13,375 nt of DNA from a virus. The translations under genes and the position numbers were made by a program. Position 1 is the first letter of the stretch; every line of letters starts with the position of its first letter. Where the stretch lies: the IMG/VR virus record IMGVR_UViG_3300012983_001730. One strand, 5' to 3'. Positions 6,556 through 12,323 of this stretch are shown piece after piece. The notes under the pieces were generated by a model. That model saw only the letters and a list, made by a program, of their open reading frames with translations. It made no database searches and was not told the origin of the DNA.

Positions 6556-7347
6556 TTAGAAATGCCAATGATAATTGTCGTTACGACCTTCGGCGCGAGG
6601 GCCAGGCAAGTTAATGCATTTCTTGTGTTCATTTCTTGCGTGACGCTGGCTCATATTGCGCCAAGTGTCGACGTCCGGGATAATGTCCAGAAGCAGATAA
6701 TCATCAATCTGGTCATAGGTTACGCCCATATTATCCTCGTCAGTCTGACCAGTCATACCATCCGCAGGCGCCTTATCAACCAGGTGACGAGGAATCTCCT
6801 TCATTGCACGACCCATCATGAGAACTTCACGAACAGTCAGCTCCTGGAATAGATGGAAGTCGCCGGCGAGATCGCCATACTTGGTGGTGTAACCAATCCA
6901 ACCCTCGGACCAGTTACCAGTATTGACTACACGACCTCCATAAATTGCTGCGATAGCATATAGAGTTACCATACGCATACGAGCAGGAACATTTGTACGA
7001 ACAGCAGGAATTTCGCAATCGCCGCGACCTACGCAGCCATAAAATGCATCAACTGCAGGCTCGATATTGATTTCATCATACTTGATACCAAGAGCCTCGC
7101 AGACTTCATAGGAATGCGCGATGTCTGCCTGAGTGCCACAAGGCATCAATACGCCGTGAACCCTGTCTGCGCCCAGTGCTCGGACAAGCAGGGCGGCCGC
7201 AATTGTAGAATCTTTACCACCGGAAATACCGATGATAGCCTTGGTCTCAGGACCAGCATTTTTCACGAAATATTTACGAATCCACTCAACAGTGTACTCA
7301 ATCTGATATTTGGGGTCAAATTCCCACTTTCTCTTATCCTTACCCAT
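6556..7347 (-). CDS. nadE: NH3-dependent NAD+ synthetase (NadE, PP-loop ATP pyrophosphatase).
   Basis: PP-loop GISGGKDS is present. The length (263 aa) and overall pattern match single-domain NadE. The ribosome-binding site GGAGGA is 8 nt upstream of the ATG at 7347. The stop of the macrodomain gene is 1 nt upstream. Confidence 0.85.
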   Translation of the reverse strand: MGKDKRKWEFDPKYQIEYTVEWIRKYFVKNAGPETKAIIGISGGKDSTIAAALLVRALGADRVHGVLMPCGTQADIAHSYEVCEALGIKYDEINIEPAVDAFYGCVGRGDCEIPAVRTNVPARMRMVTLYAIAAIYGGRVVNTGNWSEGWIGYTTKYGDLAGDFHLFQELTVREVLMMGRAMKEIPRHLVDKAPADGMTGQTDEDNMGVTYDQIDDYLLLDIIPDVDTWRNMSQRHARNEHKKCINLPGPRAEGRNDNYHWHF

Positions 7348-7348
7348 T

Positions 7349-7852
7349 TCACTTTCCTCCGTTATAATGAACGATATAGACTACATAGTCTTCATCAAAA
7401 ACTTCTCGAATCATAGCTTCGATTACATTCCAGTTTGCGCCACCACGGTCACAGCCAATCAGATAAGGAAAACCGATTGTAGAACCTTTAGGAAGAACCT
7501 GCTTAAGATTGTTCAAACAAATCCAAAACGCATCATAGGAAGTGTAACGCTTGCCATCATAACCATAGTTATTCTGTGCAAACATATTGCAGACATGCTG
7601 ATGTTTAATGTCTTTCATAAAGTCCTCATACAGAGGAACGAGCTGAACATCACCGAGCATCATATTGACACCAGTTGTTACCATTGCATCATATTTTGCT
7701 CGATATGCGTCATAAACTTGCGGATAGGTATCGCGAATCTGCTTCGCGATACCAGACGCCATTTTGCCCTGACAATTCACCTGATGGCAAATCACATCAA
7801 GATTCATGTCTTTCTGTACTTTGAGTAAGTCACCAGGCATATGAACTATCAT
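7349..7852 (-). CDS. Macrodomain protein of the TARG1/OARD1/DarG-like class (ADP-ribose binding, de-ADP-ribosylation or O-acyl-ADP-ribose deacylase).
   Basis: PGDLLKVQKDMNLDVICHQVNCQGKMASGIAKQIRDTYP parallels the TARG1 N-terminal signature GDLF…D…HC.S.D..MG.GIA..F. I took the start at the third ATG (7852), which gives GGAGGT-6 nt-ATG and a TAATG overlap with the nadV stop. The ORF-track start at 7858 has a ribosome-binding site too close. Confidence 0.7.
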   Translation of the reverse strand: MIVHMPGDLLKVQKDMNLDVICHQVNCQGKMASGIAKQIRDTYPQVYDAYRAKYDAMVTTGVNMMLGDVQLVPLYEDFMKDIKHQHVCNMFAQNNYGYDGKRYTSYDAFWICLNNLKQVLPKGSTIGFPYLIGCDRGGANWNVIEAMIREVFDEDYVVYIVHYNGGK

Positions 7853-9324
7853 TAGCATACCTCCGGATAAAGATTTGCACGAATCTGCTGGAAAGTCTGC
7901 AGATTGTAGTACTGACCATCCTTGTAGATAGTCTTCATAACAGTGAGATTGTCACCAACCCACTCAGAGAAACCATCAATGCACTCGAAAGTGCCATCGG
8001 GATGCTTCTGAACCATGCAGCAACCCTTCTGAGACTTCTTCAGTCCACCAACGTCGGTCTTAGGGTCCTTGTAGATAGGAACTTCCTTGCCACCGAAGAC
8101 ACCATAGGTAGCCTTCATAGCCATACCCCAAGTATCACGAGTCAGAACAGTGAACTTGTTATCCGGGCTGAACAGAGCGTGGAAGCAGAAGGCGCCAACG
8201 CCGAAGACCACATTAGTAGAAGCAAAGCCCAGCTTTTCGAGGGACTCATAAATCTGCTCAACGCGATTCAGAGTGCAGCCATCACCGTAAATCAGACCAA
8301 TGTGAGGGTCAAGAACCTTATAGCCAGCGGCATTGATAGTGCCACCGAAAACATCCCACAGCTTCTGAATAGTGCCAACGGAGATAGCAACCATGTCGCC
8401 GGAGTCAGGACGAATGAGCAGCTTGCCATTGTGGGCGAGAATTTCGTCCTTGCAAGCAGGGATAATATTGTTTACCATATTCCAGTAGTCATAGGTATCA
8501 GATACCATAGAGAAACTGGTGTTAGGATAGATTTCAGTCAACATACGCTTTACGAAAGTGATTTCATCGCCGTCGATCGCGTAGTTAGCAGCCATAACAG
8601 AGTGCTCAGTAGAAACGGCACCAACGCCAATCTTGTGCTCTGCACAATTAGCATAGTAGTACTCGTCCAAATAAGGTAGAGCAGGAATAGTGGAAGTCTT
8701 ATTGAAAGACAGGAGCCAAGAAGCAGAGCAACGAGTTGCATCTTCCAGGCAGCTCATACCACGGAAACCGAAGTCAGCCATTGCCATATAAGGGTCGGCG
8801 CCAGGAGCAGTCTGAGAGTAGAACTTCTCAGCAACCTTGTGATATTCCCAACCTACGGTCGCATATGCGCACATAGGCCACACTTCAGTCTGGAGCAGGC
8901 ACTCAAGCCACTGAATGACCCAAGCGAAACGAGGGTGAGTATTGCGCATCTCAACCAGAGGAATTCCCATATTGATTACAGAACCCTCGGGAATTGCGCG
9001 GATTTCTACAGGCAGGTAGCCCAGTTCATGTAGTTCGATGATACGGTCTCGCGCCACATTGCCAAGACCAAGGTGGGCATCGATGTAATGGTCATATTCA
9101 TACATAACCTGTTCGATGGTTTCATAGAAGAACTCTTCAAAGCCCTTCTGCATATCCATAATGAAAGGCTGAATACCATAAACAACCATCTTAGGGAAGT
9201 TGTCATTCATTGCCTTTCGAGCAGTCAGATAAGATACCAGATACTCCTGGTTATCGGGATACATCAGAGGGTGGCACTGCTTATAAGAGTCACTGTACAG
9301 CATAATCATCTTACGAAAATTCAT
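7852..9324 (-). CDS. nadV: Nicotinamide phosphoribosyltransferase (NAMPT / NadV family).
   Basis: LYSDSYK N-terminal motif; FGFRGMS; MVSDTYDYWN; LLIRPDSGD; GYKVLDPHIGLIYGDG; KDPKTDVGGLKKSQKG. These align position by position with human/bacterial NAMPT (VVSDSYDIYN, LIIRPDSGNP, GYKLLPPYLRVIQGDG, KDPVADPNKRSKKG). The ribosome-binding site AAAGGAGAT is present. Confidence 0.9.
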   Translation of the reverse strand: MNFRKMIMLYSDSYKQCHPLMYPDNQEYLVSYLTARKAMNDNFPKMVVYGIQPFIMDMQKGFEEFFYETIEQVMYEYDHYIDAHLGLGNVARDRIIELHELGYLPVEIRAIPEGSVINMGIPLVEMRNTHPRFAWVIQWLECLLQTEVWPMCAYATVGWEYHKVAEKFYSQTAPGADPYMAMADFGFRGMSCLEDATRCSASWLLSFNKTSTIPALPYLDEYYYANCAEHKIGVGAVSTEHSVMAANYAIDGDEITFVKRMLTEIYPNTSFSMVSDTYDYWNMVNNIIPACKDEILAHNGKLLIRPDSGDMVAISVGTIQKLWDVFGGTINAAGYKVLDPHIGLIYGDGCTLNRVEQIYESLEKLGFASTNVVFGVGAFCFHALFSPDNKFTVLTRDTWGMAMKATYGVFGGKEVPIYKDPKTDVGGLKKSQKGCCMVQKHPDGTFECIDGFSEWVGDNLTVMKTIYKDGQYYNLQTFQQIRANLYPEVC

Positions 9325-9342: not shown

Positions 9343-9879
9343 TTATTCAAAATCGCCTTTGATATCAACTTCAATGTCATTCGGAATAATATCCGCTGCG
9401 CCTTGAACTTCTTCAAAGACGCGATTTAAGTAGCCGTCAATTGCAGCTTCGAATTCAGATTCTGTACAATCTTCTGAAACTCCAACTTCACTCGGCTCAA
9501 AAGTGAATAGATAAGTTACTGACACATAGGCTTGTTTCTTCATCTTAGGCTTCCTTTCTGCATGACCGCAGGTAGCAACTGCTTCGGCATCGCCAGGACA
9601 TCTCTGAGTGCCGCAACGACTACAAAATTCCTTTTGAAAATATTCAATCATATGAGGTTGAAGAATATATTGCTTTTTGCCATCAACCCATTTCCAAAAG
9701 AAGCGACCAGAGCGAGGATAGCAGAAATTGGGATTTTCAAAATCCGCTTTTACATTGGACTGTGCTACTGGTAAACCGGGTGACCACGGCCACCAACCAA
9801 TAGGCACGAAATCAATTCCATCAGCTTCTGGGCATTTCGCCCATTCTTTCTCCCAAAATTCATTCATTGTATACACCAT
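9343..9879 (-). CDS. Hypothetical Trp/Cys-rich protein (178 aa) co-transcribed immediately upstream of nadV.
   Basis: The ORF is clean. The N-terminal half is Trp-rich (WEKEW, GWWPWSPG, FFWKW). A Cys cluster CSRCGTQRCPGD…CGHAE suggests metal binding. I recognise no family. There is a weak ribosome-binding site (AAGGAAAG). Confidence 0.6.
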   Translation of the reverse strand: MVYTMNEFWEKEWAKCPEADGIDFVPIGWWPWSPGLPVAQSNVKADFENPNFCYPRSGRFFWKWVDGKKQYILQPHMIEYFQKEFCSRCGTQRCPGDAEAVATCGHAERKPKMKKQAYVSVTYLFTFEPSEVGVSEDCTESEFEAAIDGYLNRVFEEVQGAADIIPNDIEVDIKGDFE

Positions 9880-10048
9880 TCTTTCCTTCTTTGTAGTACC
9901 CAGCGCATCTCAACTTGCTGAGAGGGACGGGTTTATGGTCTGAGAAATATAAGGTTCCCTTATCAGACACTCTATACTTGGCTACCTCTTGGGTGCCATC
10001 TTTGTAAATTAACAATAACTTTTTGCCTTTAATAAAGTGCTGATGCAT
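9860..10048 (-). CDS. Small hypothetical protein (62 aa), leader gene of the nadV operon.
   Basis: Good ribosome-binding site (AAAGGAGAAAAGCC-ATG). It lies ~38 nt downstream of the predicted transcription start site of the promoter at 10099-10127. It overlaps the next gene's start by 20 nt in another frame. Confidence 0.45.
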   Translation of the reverse strand: MHQHFIKGKKLLLIYKDGTQEVAKYRVSDKGTLYFSDHKPVPLSKLRCAGYYKEGKNGVYNE

Positions 10049-10098: not shown

Positions 10099-10127
10099 AT
10101 TATAACATATTTTTATTAAAAAATCAA
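10099..10127 (-). promoter_or_regulatory. Copy 3 of the conserved promoter cassette (TTGATT-17 nt-TGT-TATAAT).
   Basis: TTGATT at 10127..10122 and TATAAT at 10104..10099. It is followed by ATATATATA and an AAGTAAGGAAAG leader. It is fused to the terminator at 10120-10152. Confidence 0.65.
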
Positions 10128-10152
10128 AGAAGCCCTATTTGCATAGGGCTTC
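10120..10152 (-). terminator. Rho-independent terminator after the lipoprotein gene.
   Basis: Perfect 10-bp stem GAAGCCCTAT (10129-10138) / ATAGGGCTTC (10143-10152) with loop TTGC. On the minus strand it is followed by TTTGATTTTTT. Confidence 0.7.
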
Positions 10153-10164
10153 TCTATCTTTTCT

Positions 10165-10680
10165 TTATTCAAAAGTAATGGACAGCTCGTCCGTACGATA
10201 GAGCTCATTCCAATCAGCGTCATAAATTGCCAATTTAAAGGCAATTTTATCAATGCTTTCTGTAATGTTATTGCGGTCAAGGTCTTCCTTCATAAACGAG
10301 AAGGTTTCATTTGCCTTTTTACCTTCCGCAATTTCAATCGTGAAATAAGGGTCAATCATACAGTCATTAACCGAAGTCTCGACCATGGCAACATAGATTG
10401 TCTTATCTGTTGGGTTTTCAACATAAACATCAACAGTATAAGCATCCCAGAAGTCGTCACGATAAGGTTTACTTGTTACTTTGAAGATGACACGGTCATT
10501 AGAAACCAAAGTAACAGGATTAAAAACGACTTCGTCCACAGCAGTCTCATCCTCGGAAGGGTCAACAGTTTCGGAAATCGAAGTGTCCGGCTCGGTTGTG
10601 TCAGGAGCAGGGTCGCCCGCACAGGCAACCAAGCTGAAACACATACACAGAGCCAAAATCAAAGCCAAAAACTTTTTCAT
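10165..10680 (-). CDS. Secreted lipoprotein (signal peptide plus lipobox LVAC), function unknown.
   Basis: MKKFLALILALCMCFSLVAC-AG is a classic type II signal peptide with Cys20. The following segment is acidic and Thr/Pro-rich, then there is a beta-rich domain. Confidence 0.75.
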   Translation of the reverse strand: MKKFLALILALCMCFSLVACAGDPAPDTTEPDTSISETVDPSEDETAVDEVVFNPVTLVSNDRVIFKVTSKPYRDDFWDAYTVDVYVENPTDKTIYVAMVETSVNDCMIDPYFTIEIAEGKKANETFSFMKEDLDRNNITESIDKIAFKLAIYDADWNELYRTDELSITFE

Positions 10681-10697: not shown

Positions 10698-11471
10698 TTA
10701 AATAATCTCAATCAGTTCATTCTGAGCATTTCCAGGGAAGATGCTATTGGTAGTGAAAATCTTCTCTACCAGACCAGAATTCACCAAATCTCCATTGAAA
10801 ATAGTCATCTCACAGTGAGTGACATAGAGATAAACCTTTGCTGCGCCAGCGTCCTTGAGAGCCTTAGCAGTATGGTAGAAAGTGCCACCACGAGAGCAGA
10901 TATCGTCAACAATCAGAACATTCTTGCCAACAACTACATCGGGATGCATGAGGTCCAGACCCTCAATCTTACCATCTGCCCAATTACGACGCTTCACGCC
11001 GAAGGAATAAGGCTTGCTGACCATACCAGAGTAGCGCTTCATTGCGCCCTCGTCAGGGTAGCACATAACCAGATTTTCGTCTGCAATCTTCTCAATTACA
11101 GTTTCGATATGGGCCTGCGCAGATACAACCTGCACATTATCCAGAAGAGCCTCGCACACATTGGAATGAGGGTCTTCGATGTACACAGCAGCAAATCCCA
11201 GGTCATTGATGGTTTCGCAGAAATACTTCAGCGTAAACACATCAGTAGGAGCCTTAACCCGGTCCATACGAGCATGAGGGCAGTAAGGCATATACAGGCT
11301 CAGAGGAAGGTGCTGATAATGCTTGCGGATGCAGATGATGGTAAACAGCTCGGCATCATTCTCATAGTTCCAGATTACCAGACCGTTTTCCAGCTGCTCT
11401 GGCAGATGCATGAGCAGAGTATTGTCGGGATAAGAAAGCTGGTCAATTACAACATTTCCAATTCGAATCAT
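10698..11471 (-). CDS. prs: Ribose-phosphate pyrophosphokinase-like protein (Prs / PRPP synthetase family), a short divergent form. It could be the Adps-type ADPR pyrophosphokinase of the NARP1 pathway.
   Basis: The PRPP-binding loop VLIVDDICSRGGTF is present. MPYCPHARMDR matches the Prs IPYFGYARQDR pattern, and EDPHS matches the VDLHA region. At 257 aa it is ~60 aa shorter than canonical Prs. The ribosome-binding site AAAGGAGAAG is present. Confidence 0.8.
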   Translation of the reverse strand: MIRIGNVVIDQLSYPDNTLLMHLPEQLENGLVIWNYENDAELFTIICIRKHYQHLPLSLYMPYCPHARMDRVKAPTDVFTLKYFCETINDLGFAAVYIEDPHSNVCEALLDNVQVVSAQAHIETVIEKIADENLVMCYPDEGAMKRYSGMVSKPYSFGVKRRNWADGKIEGLDLMHPDVVVGKNVLIVDDICSRGGTFYHTAKALKDAGAAKVYLYVTHCEMTIFNGDLVNSGLVEKIFTTNSIFPGNAQNELIEII

Positions 11472-11472
11472 A

Positions 11473-11661
11473 TTACTTCTCCTTTATCAATCTACTATAA
11501 ACTTCTTCGATTCGGTCGCTATCTTCCCATCCCATCTGCCTATATGCAGCCAATCTCAATATTGCACAATACTTTTTGAAATTTTGCTTTGCATATATGA
11601 AGAGGGATGGGGAGTAAGGAATATCGTTTTGCTTTAGAAAAGCAATTTGTTCATCATTCAT
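11473..11661 (-). CDS. Small hypothetical protein (62 aa), translationally coupled between pncA-like and prs-like.
   Basis: ATGAATGA overlap with the upstream stop. TAAT-ATG junction with the downstream start. I recognise no domain. Confidence 0.5.
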   Translation of the reverse strand: MNDEQIAFLKQNDIPYSPSLFIYAKQNFKKYCAILRLAAYRQMGWEDSDRIEEVYSRLIKEK

Positions 11662-12226
11662 TGATAACCTTAATCTGGCAAGACTTCATAGTTTCCAGAG
11701 CTGCCAGATGACGCTCGGGAGTAACACCGGCGCAGCAACTTGCGTCAACAGTTACCTGCACTTCAGGACAGTAAGCCTTAATCAGCATCGCATTGGAAAC
11801 AACGCAGATATCGGTGCAAACGCCCATGAGGATAACCTCGTCGATAGGATTGTCGGGGAGAATGTCGCGGATAATTTCAGCCAGGCGAATAGAACCAAAG
11901 GTATTCTTGAGAACGCGGCTCTTCATAATGTCCTTAGCAGAGTAGAAGCAGAAATTGCTACCATAGTCCACAACGCTGGAAATCTGCTTATTGATGCTCC
12001 AGCCCGGGGTGCCCTCGATACAGTGGGGAACAGGCAGGTTCTTACCCTCCTGGGTATCCATATAGTCAGCGTAATGGGTGTCCTTGGTGAACATAATCAG
12101 ATTGTCACCGGCGTTCAGTTCTTTCAGACGCTCCACCATTACAGGAACGATTGCCTGAGCCTCAGGACTGCCTAGAGCGCCGTCGATGAAATCATTCTGC
12201 ATATCAACTACAACAATAACTTTCAT
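11654..12226 (-). CDS. pncA: Nicotinamidase/pyrazinamidase PncA (isochorismatase-family cysteine hydrolase).
   Basis: VIVVVDMQNDF (catalytic Asp). TKDTHY…PVPHCIEGTPGW parallels the M. tuberculosis PncA metal site TKDFH…PPHCVSGTPGADF. The catalytic Cys is in GVCTDICV. The ribosome-binding site AAAGGAG is present. Confidence 0.8.
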   Translation of the reverse strand: MKVIVVVDMQNDFIDGALGSPEAQAIVPVMVERLKELNAGDNLIMFTKDTHYADYMDTQEGKNLPVPHCIEGTPGWSINKQISSVVDYGSNFCFYSAKDIMKSRVLKNTFGSIRLAEIIRDILPDNPIDEVILMGVCTDICVVSNAMLIKAYCPEVQVTVDASCCAGVTPERHLAALETMKSCQIKVINE

Positions 12227-12260: not shown

Positions 12261-12289
12261 ATTATAACATATATTTTATAAAAAATCAA
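12261..12289 (-). promoter_or_regulatory. Copy 4 of the conserved promoter cassette (TTGATT-17 nt-TGT-TATAAT).
   Basis: TTGATT at 12289..12284 and TATAAT at 12266..12261. It is followed by ATATATATA and an AAAGTAAGAAAAGGAG leader. It is fused to the terminator at 12280-12311. Confidence 0.65.
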
Positions 12290-12311
12290 GGGCGAGGTTT
12301 TACCCTCGCCC
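12280..12311 (-). terminator. Rho-independent terminator after the right-edge coiled-coil gene.
   Basis: Perfect 8-bp GC-rich stem GGGCGAGG (12290-12297) / CCTCGCCC (12304-12311) with loop TTTTAC. On the minus strand it is followed by TTGATTTTTT. Confidence 0.7.
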
Positions 12312-12323
12312 TCTATCTATCTC

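Follow-up and report, generated by a model that had tools for sequence, protein, structure and literature searches.

Why would a phage lodge a macrodomain gene between two genes of nicotinamide adenine dinucleotide (NAD+) metabolism? The question is raised by a 13,375-nt stretch of viral DNA (IMG/VR virus record IMGVR_UViG_3300012983_001730; the whole stretch is hereafter the window), in which nearly all coding sequence lies on the minus strand and the gene studied here runs from 7852 to 7349 (minus strand, 167 amino acids (aa) plus TGA). An earlier note on this DNA, made from the letters alone, had described a TARG1/DarG-class macrodomain coupled into an NAD operon, and had proposed either an anti-DarT role or a step feeding ADP-ribose (ADPR)-derived substrates to the adjacent enzymes. 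We confirm the observation and find the interpretation partly supported. The protein is probably a phosphatase of the Adpp type, which would remove the phosphate from ADP-ribose-1''-phosphate (ADPR-1''P) and so return the product of RES-type NAD+ cleavage to the ADPR pool of the neighboring Adps-like and Namat-like enzymes, with NadE completing NAD+. The proposed feeder step was thus right in kind, as it corresponds to the published function of Adpp in the NARP1-AP system, which we favor here.

NAD+ depletion is among the commonest bacterial antiviral strategies, and the phage NAD+ reconstitution pathways that answer it (NARP1, 2, and 3) are a fast-moving field. The aRES defense proteins split NAD+ into nicotinamide and ADPR-1''P, a product that NARP1, composed of Adps and Namat, is unable to use (10.64898/2026.01.28.702374). 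The three proteins of the NARP1-AP operon of Vibrio phage Gary are Adps, Adpp (a phosphatase with a macro domain), and Namat; in purified form, Adpp turns ADPR-1P into ADPR, its action restores NAD+ reconstitution, and the operon overcomes aRES (10.64898/2026.01.28.702374). Adpp is held by 15% of NARP1 operons, and aRES is commonest in Bacillota (10.4% of genomes; Table S3 of the same work, 10.64898/2026.01.28.702374). The earlier statement that neither proposed role was a textbook assignment was fair from the sequence, although a tested precedent does exist in this January 2026 preprint.

The gene and its start signal are as follows:

7349-7852, minus strand: macrodomain gene, Adpp-like predicted ADPR-1''P phosphatase (key columns H23, N26, and Q93)
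7860-7864, minus strand: GGAGG ribosome-binding site, 7 nt 5' of the macro ATG and within the last codons of the upstream gene

The translational coupling described earlier was borne out when read from the sequence. The upstream 490-aa gene ends in a TAA (7854-7852) that shares its last base with the macro ATG (7852-7850), forming TAATG, and the macro TGA (7351-7349) is separated by a 1-nt gap from the ATG of NadE at 7347, whose own GGAGG (7360-7356) sits within the 3' end of the macro coding sequence. An in-frame ATG at 7858 is an unlikely start, since its spacing to the GGAGG is just 1 nt. The macro open reading frame (ORF) is a genuine gene and not a chance ORF, given 2157 homologues of its product at E ≤ 1e-5, tblastn matches in 773 phage records (every one below 60% identity), and a confident AlphaFold2 model (predicted local distance difference test 90.4, predicted template modeling score 0.88). 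A plus-strand ORF of 172 aa at 7310-7828 was rejected as a shadow of the macro gene. A megablast search with 4 kb around the gene returned no match among 50,697 phage records, so the locus has no close cultured relative there; IMG/VR contigs of 99-100% identity were found (e.g., IMGVR_UViG_3300024272_001728, 192 kb), and the closest isolate relatives of the module genes are Bacillus phages.

The structural class proposed for the protein, a TARG1/DarG-class macrodomain, proved correct. It has the three-layer alpha/beta/alpha macro fold of the Macro domain superfamily (PF01661) and two glycine-rich ADPR-binding loops, GKMASGIA (residues 29-36) and GCDRGGANW (133-141), and in structural comparison its nearest macro folds are those of BT1257, DarG, Poa1p, and TARG1. 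Profile searches of the kind suggested in the earlier note gave a mixed outcome. Pfam returned no match at E ≤ 0.01; Pfam Macro was sub-threshold at E 0.033 and 14.6 bits (cut-off 22), a threshold passed by relatives of the protein. The NCBIfam DarG model (NF048014) reached 39.6 bits against a cut-off of 250, with its best stretch covering residues 5-61 only, and PADLOC DarG gave a weak partial match (41 bits, 3.5e-11). In the PDB, the top single-sequence match was the M. tuberculosis DarG macrodomain (E 1.5e-5), and Poa1p, a known ADPR-1''P phosphatase, was matched at E 0.0098 with the single sequence and at 4e-5 with a 41-sequence profile, which recovered the same set of PDB proteins. By structure alone, a DarG-type glycohydrolase is not distinguishable from a Poa1p-type phosphatase.

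Family comparisons point to the latter chemistry. In PHROGs, the protein falls in phrog_335, annotated as 'phosphatase' (2.6e-36), and it shares 30% identity with Gary Adpp (BLASTP, E 5e-12; 7e-10 in a second comparison with this verified enzyme). Table S1 of Osterman et al. (10.64898/2026.01.28.702374) names other macro proteins associated with NARP1, several of which are closer still, namely those of RYC (36% identity, 8e-33), PH357 (1e-26), 1.063.O (8e-26), and JG004 (5e-21). A hidden Markov model (HMM) built from 10 of the Table S1 proteins scores the window protein at 131 bits (E 2e-42), versus 36.9 bits for an HMM of four DarG/AdfM sequences, a margin that is indicative only because the latter model is so small. 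The protein thus groups by sequence with the macro proteins of NARP1 operons and is, judging from these comparisons, a divergent and newly found member of the Adpp kind.

We then looked to the residues that would distinguish the two chemistries. The window protein and three metagenomic relatives were aligned (MAFFT) with seven Table S1 macro proteins, including Gary Adpp, and six others (BT1257, Bacillus phage PK-3, M. tuberculosis DarG, Asesino gp217 (AdfM), the PhiKZ-like PA7, and Thermus phage phiMa). Two columns cleanly divide the DarG/AdfM group from the Adpp-type group. The former carries the motifs [V/N/I]-T-V-N and P-T-K, the K being DarG K80 or AdfM K78, which are among the active-site residues named in the AdfM work (PMC13309987), whereas H-x-x-N and x-x-Q are found in the window protein, BT1257, PK-3, and every Adpp-type protein aligned. 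The first motif reads 'H-Q-V-N' in the window protein where the DarG type has 'N-T-V-N', the H-x-x-N also being found in Adpp, and Gln93 occupies the column that holds Lys in M. tuberculosis DarG, Asesino AdfM, PA7, and phiMa. H23, N26, and Q93 are invariant in 121 close homologues and are kept in 61 of 62 non-identical IMG/VR relatives. By both BLASTP and MAFFT, H23 and N26 align with H24 and N27 of Gary Adpp, two positions marked in the alignment of the preprint's Fig. S5, where the mutants H24A and N27A are loss-of-function and lose the anti-aRES phenotype (Table S4; 10.64898/2026.01.28.702374).

The earlier note had pointed to a catalytic Lys in the 'KMASGIAK' region and a catalytic Asp downstream, and neither held. 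The former segment (residues 30-37) is the conserved glycine-rich loop, whose G-x-G-I-A motif aligns across all macrodomains compared; in macrodomains, this loop binds the ADPR phosphate. Its Lys residues are not invariant in the 41-sequence alignment (K30 below 90%, K37 at least 90%), and several Adpp-type proteins carry other residues in their place. The true TARG1/DarG Lys column lies elsewhere, at Q93, onto which TARG1 K84 falls by transitive alignment through DarG K80, and the column of TARG1 Asp125 is Gly137 ('GCGLD' in TARG1 versus 'GCDRG' here), with the TARG1 sequence and numbering cross-checked against a partial PDB alignment. By these columns, the macro protein is not a DarG or TARG1 orthologue.

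The macro fold, the placement with NARP1-associated macro proteins, the residues essential in Adpp, the missing DarG/TARG1 Lys, and the conserved neighborhood described below are all features observed in this protein and its locus. We favor the Adpp-type assignment because of the homology to Gary Adpp, the residue columns, the HMM scores, and the context found in our surveys. That the nearest isolates are Bacillus phages also speaks for it, aRES being most frequent in Bacillota. The pathway would then run as follows. Bacterial aRES proteins (RES-domain NAD+ phosphorylases) would break NAD+ into nicotinamide and ADPR-1''P, which NARP1 enzymes could not take up, and the macrodomain would take off the 1''-phosphate to leave plain ADPR. 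An Adps-like kinase (11471 to 10698) would pyrophosphorylate ADPR to ADPR-PP, the upstream and translationally coupled Namat-like transferase would couple ADPR-PP to a pyridine base, and NadE, directly downstream, would complete the dinucleotide. That ADPR-1''P is the substrate, that aRES is the defense countered, and that ADPR flows into the neighboring enzymes, we infer from homology and gene context.

The genes surrounding the macro gene are these:

6556-7347, minus strand: NadE, NH3-dependent NAD+ synthetase-like, 263 aa, SGGKDS P-loop, starting 1 nt past the macro stop
7852-9324, minus strand: Namat-like (Nampt-family) transferase, 490 aa, catalytic His H241
9343-9879, minus strand: 178-aa Cys-rich ORF without a Pfam or PHROG match, between a predicted promoter and the Namat-like gene
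9860-10048, minus strand: 62-aa ORF between the same predicted promoter and the Namat-like gene
10165-10680, minus strand: predicted lipoprotein, 171 aa, signal peptide and LVAC lipobox, between the Adps-like gene and a terminator
10698-11471, minus strand: Adps-like PRPS-family pyrophosphokinase, 257 aa, phrog_619 (3.2e-64), in the preceding predicted transcription unit
11654-12226, minus strand: PncA-like nicotinamidase, isochorismatase fold, 190 aa, Pfam Isochorismatase 4.9e-24

Three proteins of the window (macro, Namat-like, and Adps-like) are homologous to the Gary set. The Namat-like gene is adjacent to the macro gene and the Adps-like gene is found further upstream, at a distance of 2.8 kb and four ORFs, which places the macro gene within two genes of a NARP1 system, the preprint's own rule for assigning NARP1-AP (10.64898/2026.01.28.702374), with the caveat that the Namat-like partner is an Asp215-to-Ser variant. 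The NadE neighbor named in the earlier note is supported (Pfam NAD_synthase 9e-51; NCBIfam TIGR00552 at 166.7 bits against a cut-off of 63.65), while the neighbor that it called 'nadV' groups in our comparisons with Namat rather than Nampt. In the PDB, this protein matches SpbetaL1 Namat (9W5X/9W5W) at 340.6 bits and human and bacterial Nampt chains at 164-181 bits, and it shares 30% identity with Gary Namat (E 6e-67).

The Adps-like gene (11471 to 10698) is, by its scores, closer to Adps than to PRPS. Against TIGR01251 (cut-off 113) its product scores 99.1 bits, much as the verified Gary Adps (99.9) and FADO Adps (96.5) do; its best PRPS match in the PDB reaches only 52.7 bits, and a search of the PDB found no Adps structure. 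The adenine-binding residues particular to Adps are Phe18, Arg87, and Phe92. It shares 39% identity with Gary Adps (E 4e-30), keeps the catalytic-loop Lys equivalent to Gary K192, and, judged from length and alignment ends alone, lacks the PRPS C-terminal alpha11-alpha12 module. This fits the published Adps signature of a PRPS-like protein without the C-terminal module but with the catalytic-loop Lys retained (PMC13586617). A true phosphoribosyl pyrophosphate (PRPP) synthetase was considered for this gene and rejected, as it falls below all PRPS cut-offs, just like verified Adps. The PncA-like protein carries the D8/K/C triad (the C in GVCTDICV) and the metal/substrate motif DTH...PHCIEGTPG, of the PHC-x-G-T-x-G type, and its best PDB matches are the nicotinamidase/pyrazinamidases of P. 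horikoshii (4.9e-15) and M. tuberculosis (2.7e-10).

This neighborhood is conserved. All seven relatives inspected (47-74% identity in one protein or another) hold Namat-like, macro, and NadE genes in this order with PncA-like and Adps-like genes nearby, although PncA lies on the far side of NadE in one human-faecal scaffold. Two surveys were made, both seeded with short conserved peptides and therefore limited to relatives of this clade. Around the macro gene in 62 non-identical IMG/VR loci (38-99% identity, flanks of ±7 kb), a Namat-like gene was present in 51, NadE in 52, a PncA-like gene in 43, and an Adps-like gene in 44, with 42 loci having all four; in 43 the macro gene is immediately followed by NadE, and in 40 a Namat-like gene also directly precedes the macro gene. 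The second survey started from NadE and covered 45 non-identical loci flanked by 5 kb or more on both sides. Macro genes were present in 26 of these, Namat-like genes in 28, PncA-like genes in 35, and Adps-like genes in 27. Eighteen of the 28 loci with a Namat-like gene (64%) have the macro gene, which is therefore a frequent but not obligatory member of the module, at a far higher frequency than the 15% reported for classical NARP1.

Other genes recur around the module in relatives. A NADAR-domain gene (DarG1-type, ADPR-processing) often follows NadE (13 of the 62 loci; e.g., L008 9315-9755, L013 8411-8743, L014 8406-8759, L002 4195-4674), is not present in the window, and also adjoins the macro gene's closest homologue from an isolate, that of Bacillus phage PK-3. 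SIR2 and NadM-like genes (FHNGH motif) lie upstream in L004 (356-1114 and 3386-3952) and L012 (1186-1929 and 2348-2899), and Thg1, YqeY, and a large vault/MVP-shoulder-like protein (MVP_shoulder in L013 and L014) occur in relatives; none of the SIR2, NadM-like, Thg1, YqeY, or MVP-shoulder-like genes was found in the 13-kb window. NadD/NMNAT was considered as a constant module member and rejected, with NadM-like genes in only 24 of ~160 surveyed loci (duplicates included).

Several predicted regulatory elements and downstream genes accompany the module:

12261-12313, 10099-10156, 6492-6554, and 5699-5727, minus strand: promoter-like cassettes (predicted)
10099-10156, minus strand: terminator hairpin followed by a promoter cassette, predicted start of the Namat-like/macro/NadE unit
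6518-6554, minus strand: intrinsic-terminator-like hairpin (16 pairs and a T-run) directly past the NadE stop, predicted unit end
5730-6440, minus strand: NinI-like metallophosphatase, RNA-repair-like, downstream of the NAD module
4867-5373, minus strand: AAA_33 polynucleotide-kinase-like protein, RNA-repair-like, downstream of the NAD module
4287-4928, minus strand: phosphoesterase, RNA-repair-like, downstream of the NAD module

A consensus scan and four-copy alignment revealed a ~50-nt cassette, TTGATTTTTTATAAAA(A/T)ATATGTTATAATATATATA, that occurs four times on the minus strand in nearly identical copies, with a promoter-like part (TTGATT-17-TGTTATAAT, then ATATATATA..AAGT). Three of the four copies directly follow a strong terminator-like hairpin, and the cassettes appear to split the region into short transcription units. 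By this consensus prediction, the first unit (12289 to 10125) would hold PncA, a 62-aa ORF, Adps, and the lipoprotein, and the second (10127 to 6518) would hold a 62-aa ORF, the 178-aa ORF, Namat-like, macro, and NadE. Two unrelated Vibrio phages, Ceto and Gary, likewise have genes for an ATPase, a phosphoesterase, an RNA ligase, and a NinI-like phosphatase next to their NARP1-AP operon. There may be a functional link between the genes that rebuild NAD and the RNA-repair-like ones.

A number of points weigh against the Adpp-type assignment and its place in NAD+ reconstitution. The protein is only 30% identical to the single biochemically verified Adpp, and since many macrodomains dephosphorylate ADPR-1''P in vitro, relatedness to Adpp does not by itself identify the substrate used in the cell. 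The family also reaches far beyond NARP1-AP, with 773 phage records retrieved by this query and 2716 with Ceto Adpp; the homologue in Bacillus phage PK-3 adjoins a NADAR gene rather than NARP1, and the macro gene of phage Kirov lies 36 kb from Namat. The Namat-like partner differs from verified Namat (Asp215 replaced by Ser, and an insertion in the clamp), so ADPR or ADPR-PP is a putative intermediate here. The 64% frequency of the macro gene in NadE-type modules, against 15% in classical NARP1 operons, could mean a more integral or a different role. Finally, the Adps-like gene lies in another predicted transcription unit, and a host that carries aRES is presumed.

Among the alternatives, it is unlikely that the protein is a broad TARG1/MacroD-like hydrolase, which would deacylate O-acetyl-ADPR (e.g., from the SIR2 of related phages) or strip mono-ADP-ribose from protein or RNA modified by host ADP-ribosyltransferase defenses, with ADPR as a by-product. 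JGI names several homologues 'O-acetyl-ADP-ribose deacetylase', SIR2 genes lie within 8 kb in 16 surveyed loci and also in L004 and L012, and the ADPR product would still feed Adps. Both K84 and D125 of TARG1 are missing, however (Q93 and G137), SIR2 occurs in a minority of relatives only and not in the window, and the nearest functionally tested relatives, Adpp and Poa1p, are phosphatases.

We judge it rather improbable that the chemistry is the same but the substrate comes from another source, with ADPR-1''P (or Appr>p after ring opening) arising from Tpt1-type RNA 2'-phosphate removal or from ADPR-PP hydrolysis. The setting would then be phage RNA repair, or metabolite repair of partly hydrolysed ADPR-PP, with no aRES-type defense involved. 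The natural role of Poa1p is in tRNA splicing (10.64898/2026.01.28.702374), RNA-repair-like genes follow the operon here (and similar genes lie beside NARP1-AP in Ceto and Gary), Thg1 and RNA-ligase-like genes occur in relatives, and the 64% frequency of the macro gene would suit housekeeping repair. Against this, the loci inspected showed no Tpt1/KptA gene, the breakdown of ADPR-PP to ADPR-1''P is speculative, and it is with its Namat-like and NadE neighbors that the macro gene is tightly coupled, whereas the RNA-repair genes lie past a predicted terminator and promoter.

The DarG-like anti-DarT role raised in the earlier note fares worse. A DarG/AdfM-like enzyme would remove ADP-ribose from thymidine in phage single-stranded DNA modified by DarT2, and there is a phage precedent for such an anti-DarT2 factor in the macrodomain AdfM (PhiKZ gp104; PMC13309987). 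The top PDB match, the PADLOC match, and the NADAR genes that adjoin macro or NadE in PK-3 and 13 of the 62 relatives also speak for it. We nevertheless consider it very unlikely: the catalytic Lys is an invariant Gln, 'H-Q-V-N' stands in place of 'N-T-V-N' as it does in Adpp and Poa1p, the NCBIfam DarG match is far below cut-off and confined to 57 N-terminal residues, and the Adpp-type HMM far outscores the DarG/AdfM one. Moreover, this is a 167-aa macro-only protein without the C-terminal DarT-binding domain, no DarT-like ORF is annotated in the window, and DNA repair gives no reason for the gene to be locked between NAD-metabolism genes in 40 of the 62 loci.

Least probable of all is interception of immune signals, in which the protein would bind or cleave the cyclic ADPR isomers of Thoeris or His-ADPR and pass linear ADPR to the NAD-rebuilding enzymes, since we know of no macrodomain that cleaves such signals, the conserved H/N pair fits the phosphatase-type Adpp, and in structure both Poa1p and DarG match far better than ThsA-Macro does; the precedent in its favor is RyDEP, an accessory gene in NARP1 operons that turns immune signals into ADPR (PMC13232231).

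If the macro protein is of the Adpp type, what pathway does it serve next to NadE and a nicotinamidase? A clue lies in the Namat-like neighbor. Its Ser211 (codon 8692-8694, minus strand) stands opposite Asp215 of SpbetaL1 Namat ('NKTSTIPA' versus 'TGTDTIPA', HMMER alignment), a residue that hydrogen-bonds the nicotinamide amide and corresponds to NAMPT Asp219 (PMC12774641, PMC12143786). Ala or Ser is found at this position in every NadE-linked Namat-like protein aligned (50 of 50 in the macro survey and 33 of 33 in the NadE survey, the two sets overlapping), while the Namats of Gary, Ceto, Thrax1, FADO, and SpbetaL1 have Asp; no NadE was found within the inspected regions around the Gary, Ceto, Thrax1, and FADO Namats (the SpbetaL1 neighborhood not being included). 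A single IMG/VR locus, L037, has the classical Adps-macro-Namat order without NadE, and there the Asp is kept. The selectivity-clamp helix has also changed. Its published motif, G-S-X-phi-X-phi-X-phi-T-R-D, has an aromatic X stacking the adenine (PMC12774641) and takes the form GS[FY]x[FY]x[FY]xTRD in Namat; here (~8130-8202, minus strand; residues ~375-398) it is split by a 10-aa insertion (GAFCFH-ALFSPDNK-FTVLTRD), such that the first aromatic positions are retained but the register is broken, with insertions of 10 to ~27 aa across the clade.

The loss of the Asp suggests that the Namat-like enzyme has switched to nicotinate as its pyridine substrate, because the carboxylate that reads the amide is lost while a nicotinamidase and an amidase for deamido-NAD (NaAD) are co-inherited. 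In this regard, Khan and colleagues reportedly found in 2006 that NAMPT D219S gains nicotinic acid activity. We therefore put forward, tentatively, that the macro gene is a frequent (~64%) part of a 'deamidated' module for NAD+ reconstitution, so far undescribed, in large phages of the gut and the environment. In such a module, the PncA-like nicotinamidase would convert nicotinamide freed by defense NADases to nicotinate, the macro enzyme (from ADPR-1''P) and Adps would provide ADPR-PP, the Namat-derived transferase with Ser/Ala for the amide-reading Asp would join ADPR-PP and nicotinate into NaAD, and NadE would amidate NaAD to NAD+.

A more conventional alternative is a phage Preiss-Handler route, in which PRPP and nicotinate would give nicotinate mononucleotide, a host or phage NadD would convert this to NaAD, and NadE would yield NAD+. 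The disturbed adenine clamp and the universal presence of NadD in hosts are consistent with it, and a KEGG-based survey of gut jumbo phages mentions pncB-nadD-nadE clusters (PMC11662467); the macro gene, however, would have no explanation. We favor the deamidated form of NARP1 over this route because the PRPS-like gene is Adps-like, genes that handle ADPR are common in the module (the macro gene, and NADAR in 13 of 62 loci), and NadM-like genes are rare. In the literature, the coverage of which was incomplete, no paper that connects NARP1 to NadE, NaAD, or nicotinamidase came up, the jumbo-phage survey being the exception, and the operon version with NadE and nicotinamidase appears to be an undescribed variant of NARP1-AP.

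The locus extends the macrodomain add-on of NARP1-AP, reported from phages of Vibrio, Pseudomonas, and Acinetobacter, to a large clade of metagenomic phages that are uncultured and roughly 100-200 kb or more in size. There, the macro gene sits in a conserved five-gene module, the chemistry of which is probably different, given the Asp loss, the NadE, and the nicotinamidase. If true, the deamidated route would add to the ways in which phages rebuild NAD+ and would offer a natural experiment on pyridine substrate switching in Nampt-family enzymes, and it is this testable pathway, rather than the macrodomain alone, that holds the most interest. The locus also carries a warning for annotation, as a small phage macro protein that matches a 'DarG' defense HMM can be an Adpp-type phosphatase; the two types are told apart by the Lys/Gln column.

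Among known systems, the closest is Adpp of phage Gary (KNV71_gp137), likewise a single-domain phage macro protein of ~160 aa with H-x-x-N and a Gln in the DarG-Lys column, encoded beside a Namat-family gene and near an Adps-family gene. The two differ in gene order (Namat-like, macro, NadE here; Adps, macro, Namat in Gary), in the position of the Adps-like gene in the preceding predicted unit, in a Namat-like partner without the nicotinamide-binding Asp, and in the addition of NadE and the nicotinamidase; at 30% identity, phosphatase activity is predicted here, whereas that of Gary Adpp was shown. Poa1p of S. cerevisiae (PDB 6LFQ) is named as the closest characterized homologue of Adpp (10.64898/2026.01.28.702374). 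It differs from the window protein in being a eukaryotic housekeeping enzyme of tRNA splicing, with no NAD-salvage gene context and a weak sequence match. Poa1p also has an H-x-x-N motif and is not known to have the catalytic Lys.

DarG2 and AdfM are thymidine-ADPr DNA glycohydrolases (PMC13309987) that share with the window protein an Asn (DarG N22, AdfM N23, window N26) and the glycine-rich loop G-x-M-G-x-G-I-A. They differ in the Lys (K80/K78) that is Gln here and in 'NTVN' for 'HQVN', and the window gene lies in an NAD-metabolism operon with no DarT neighbor, its product lacking the C-terminal DarT-binding domain of DarG. Human TARG1/OARD1 (PDB 4J5R) differs at K84 (Gln93 here) and D125 (Gly137), and has Ser where the window protein has N26. 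BT1257 of Bacteroides thetaiotaomicron (Q8A8B0; PDB 2AFC/2FG1), at 26% identity, differs in being a chromosomal bacterial protein from structural genomics with no assigned function.

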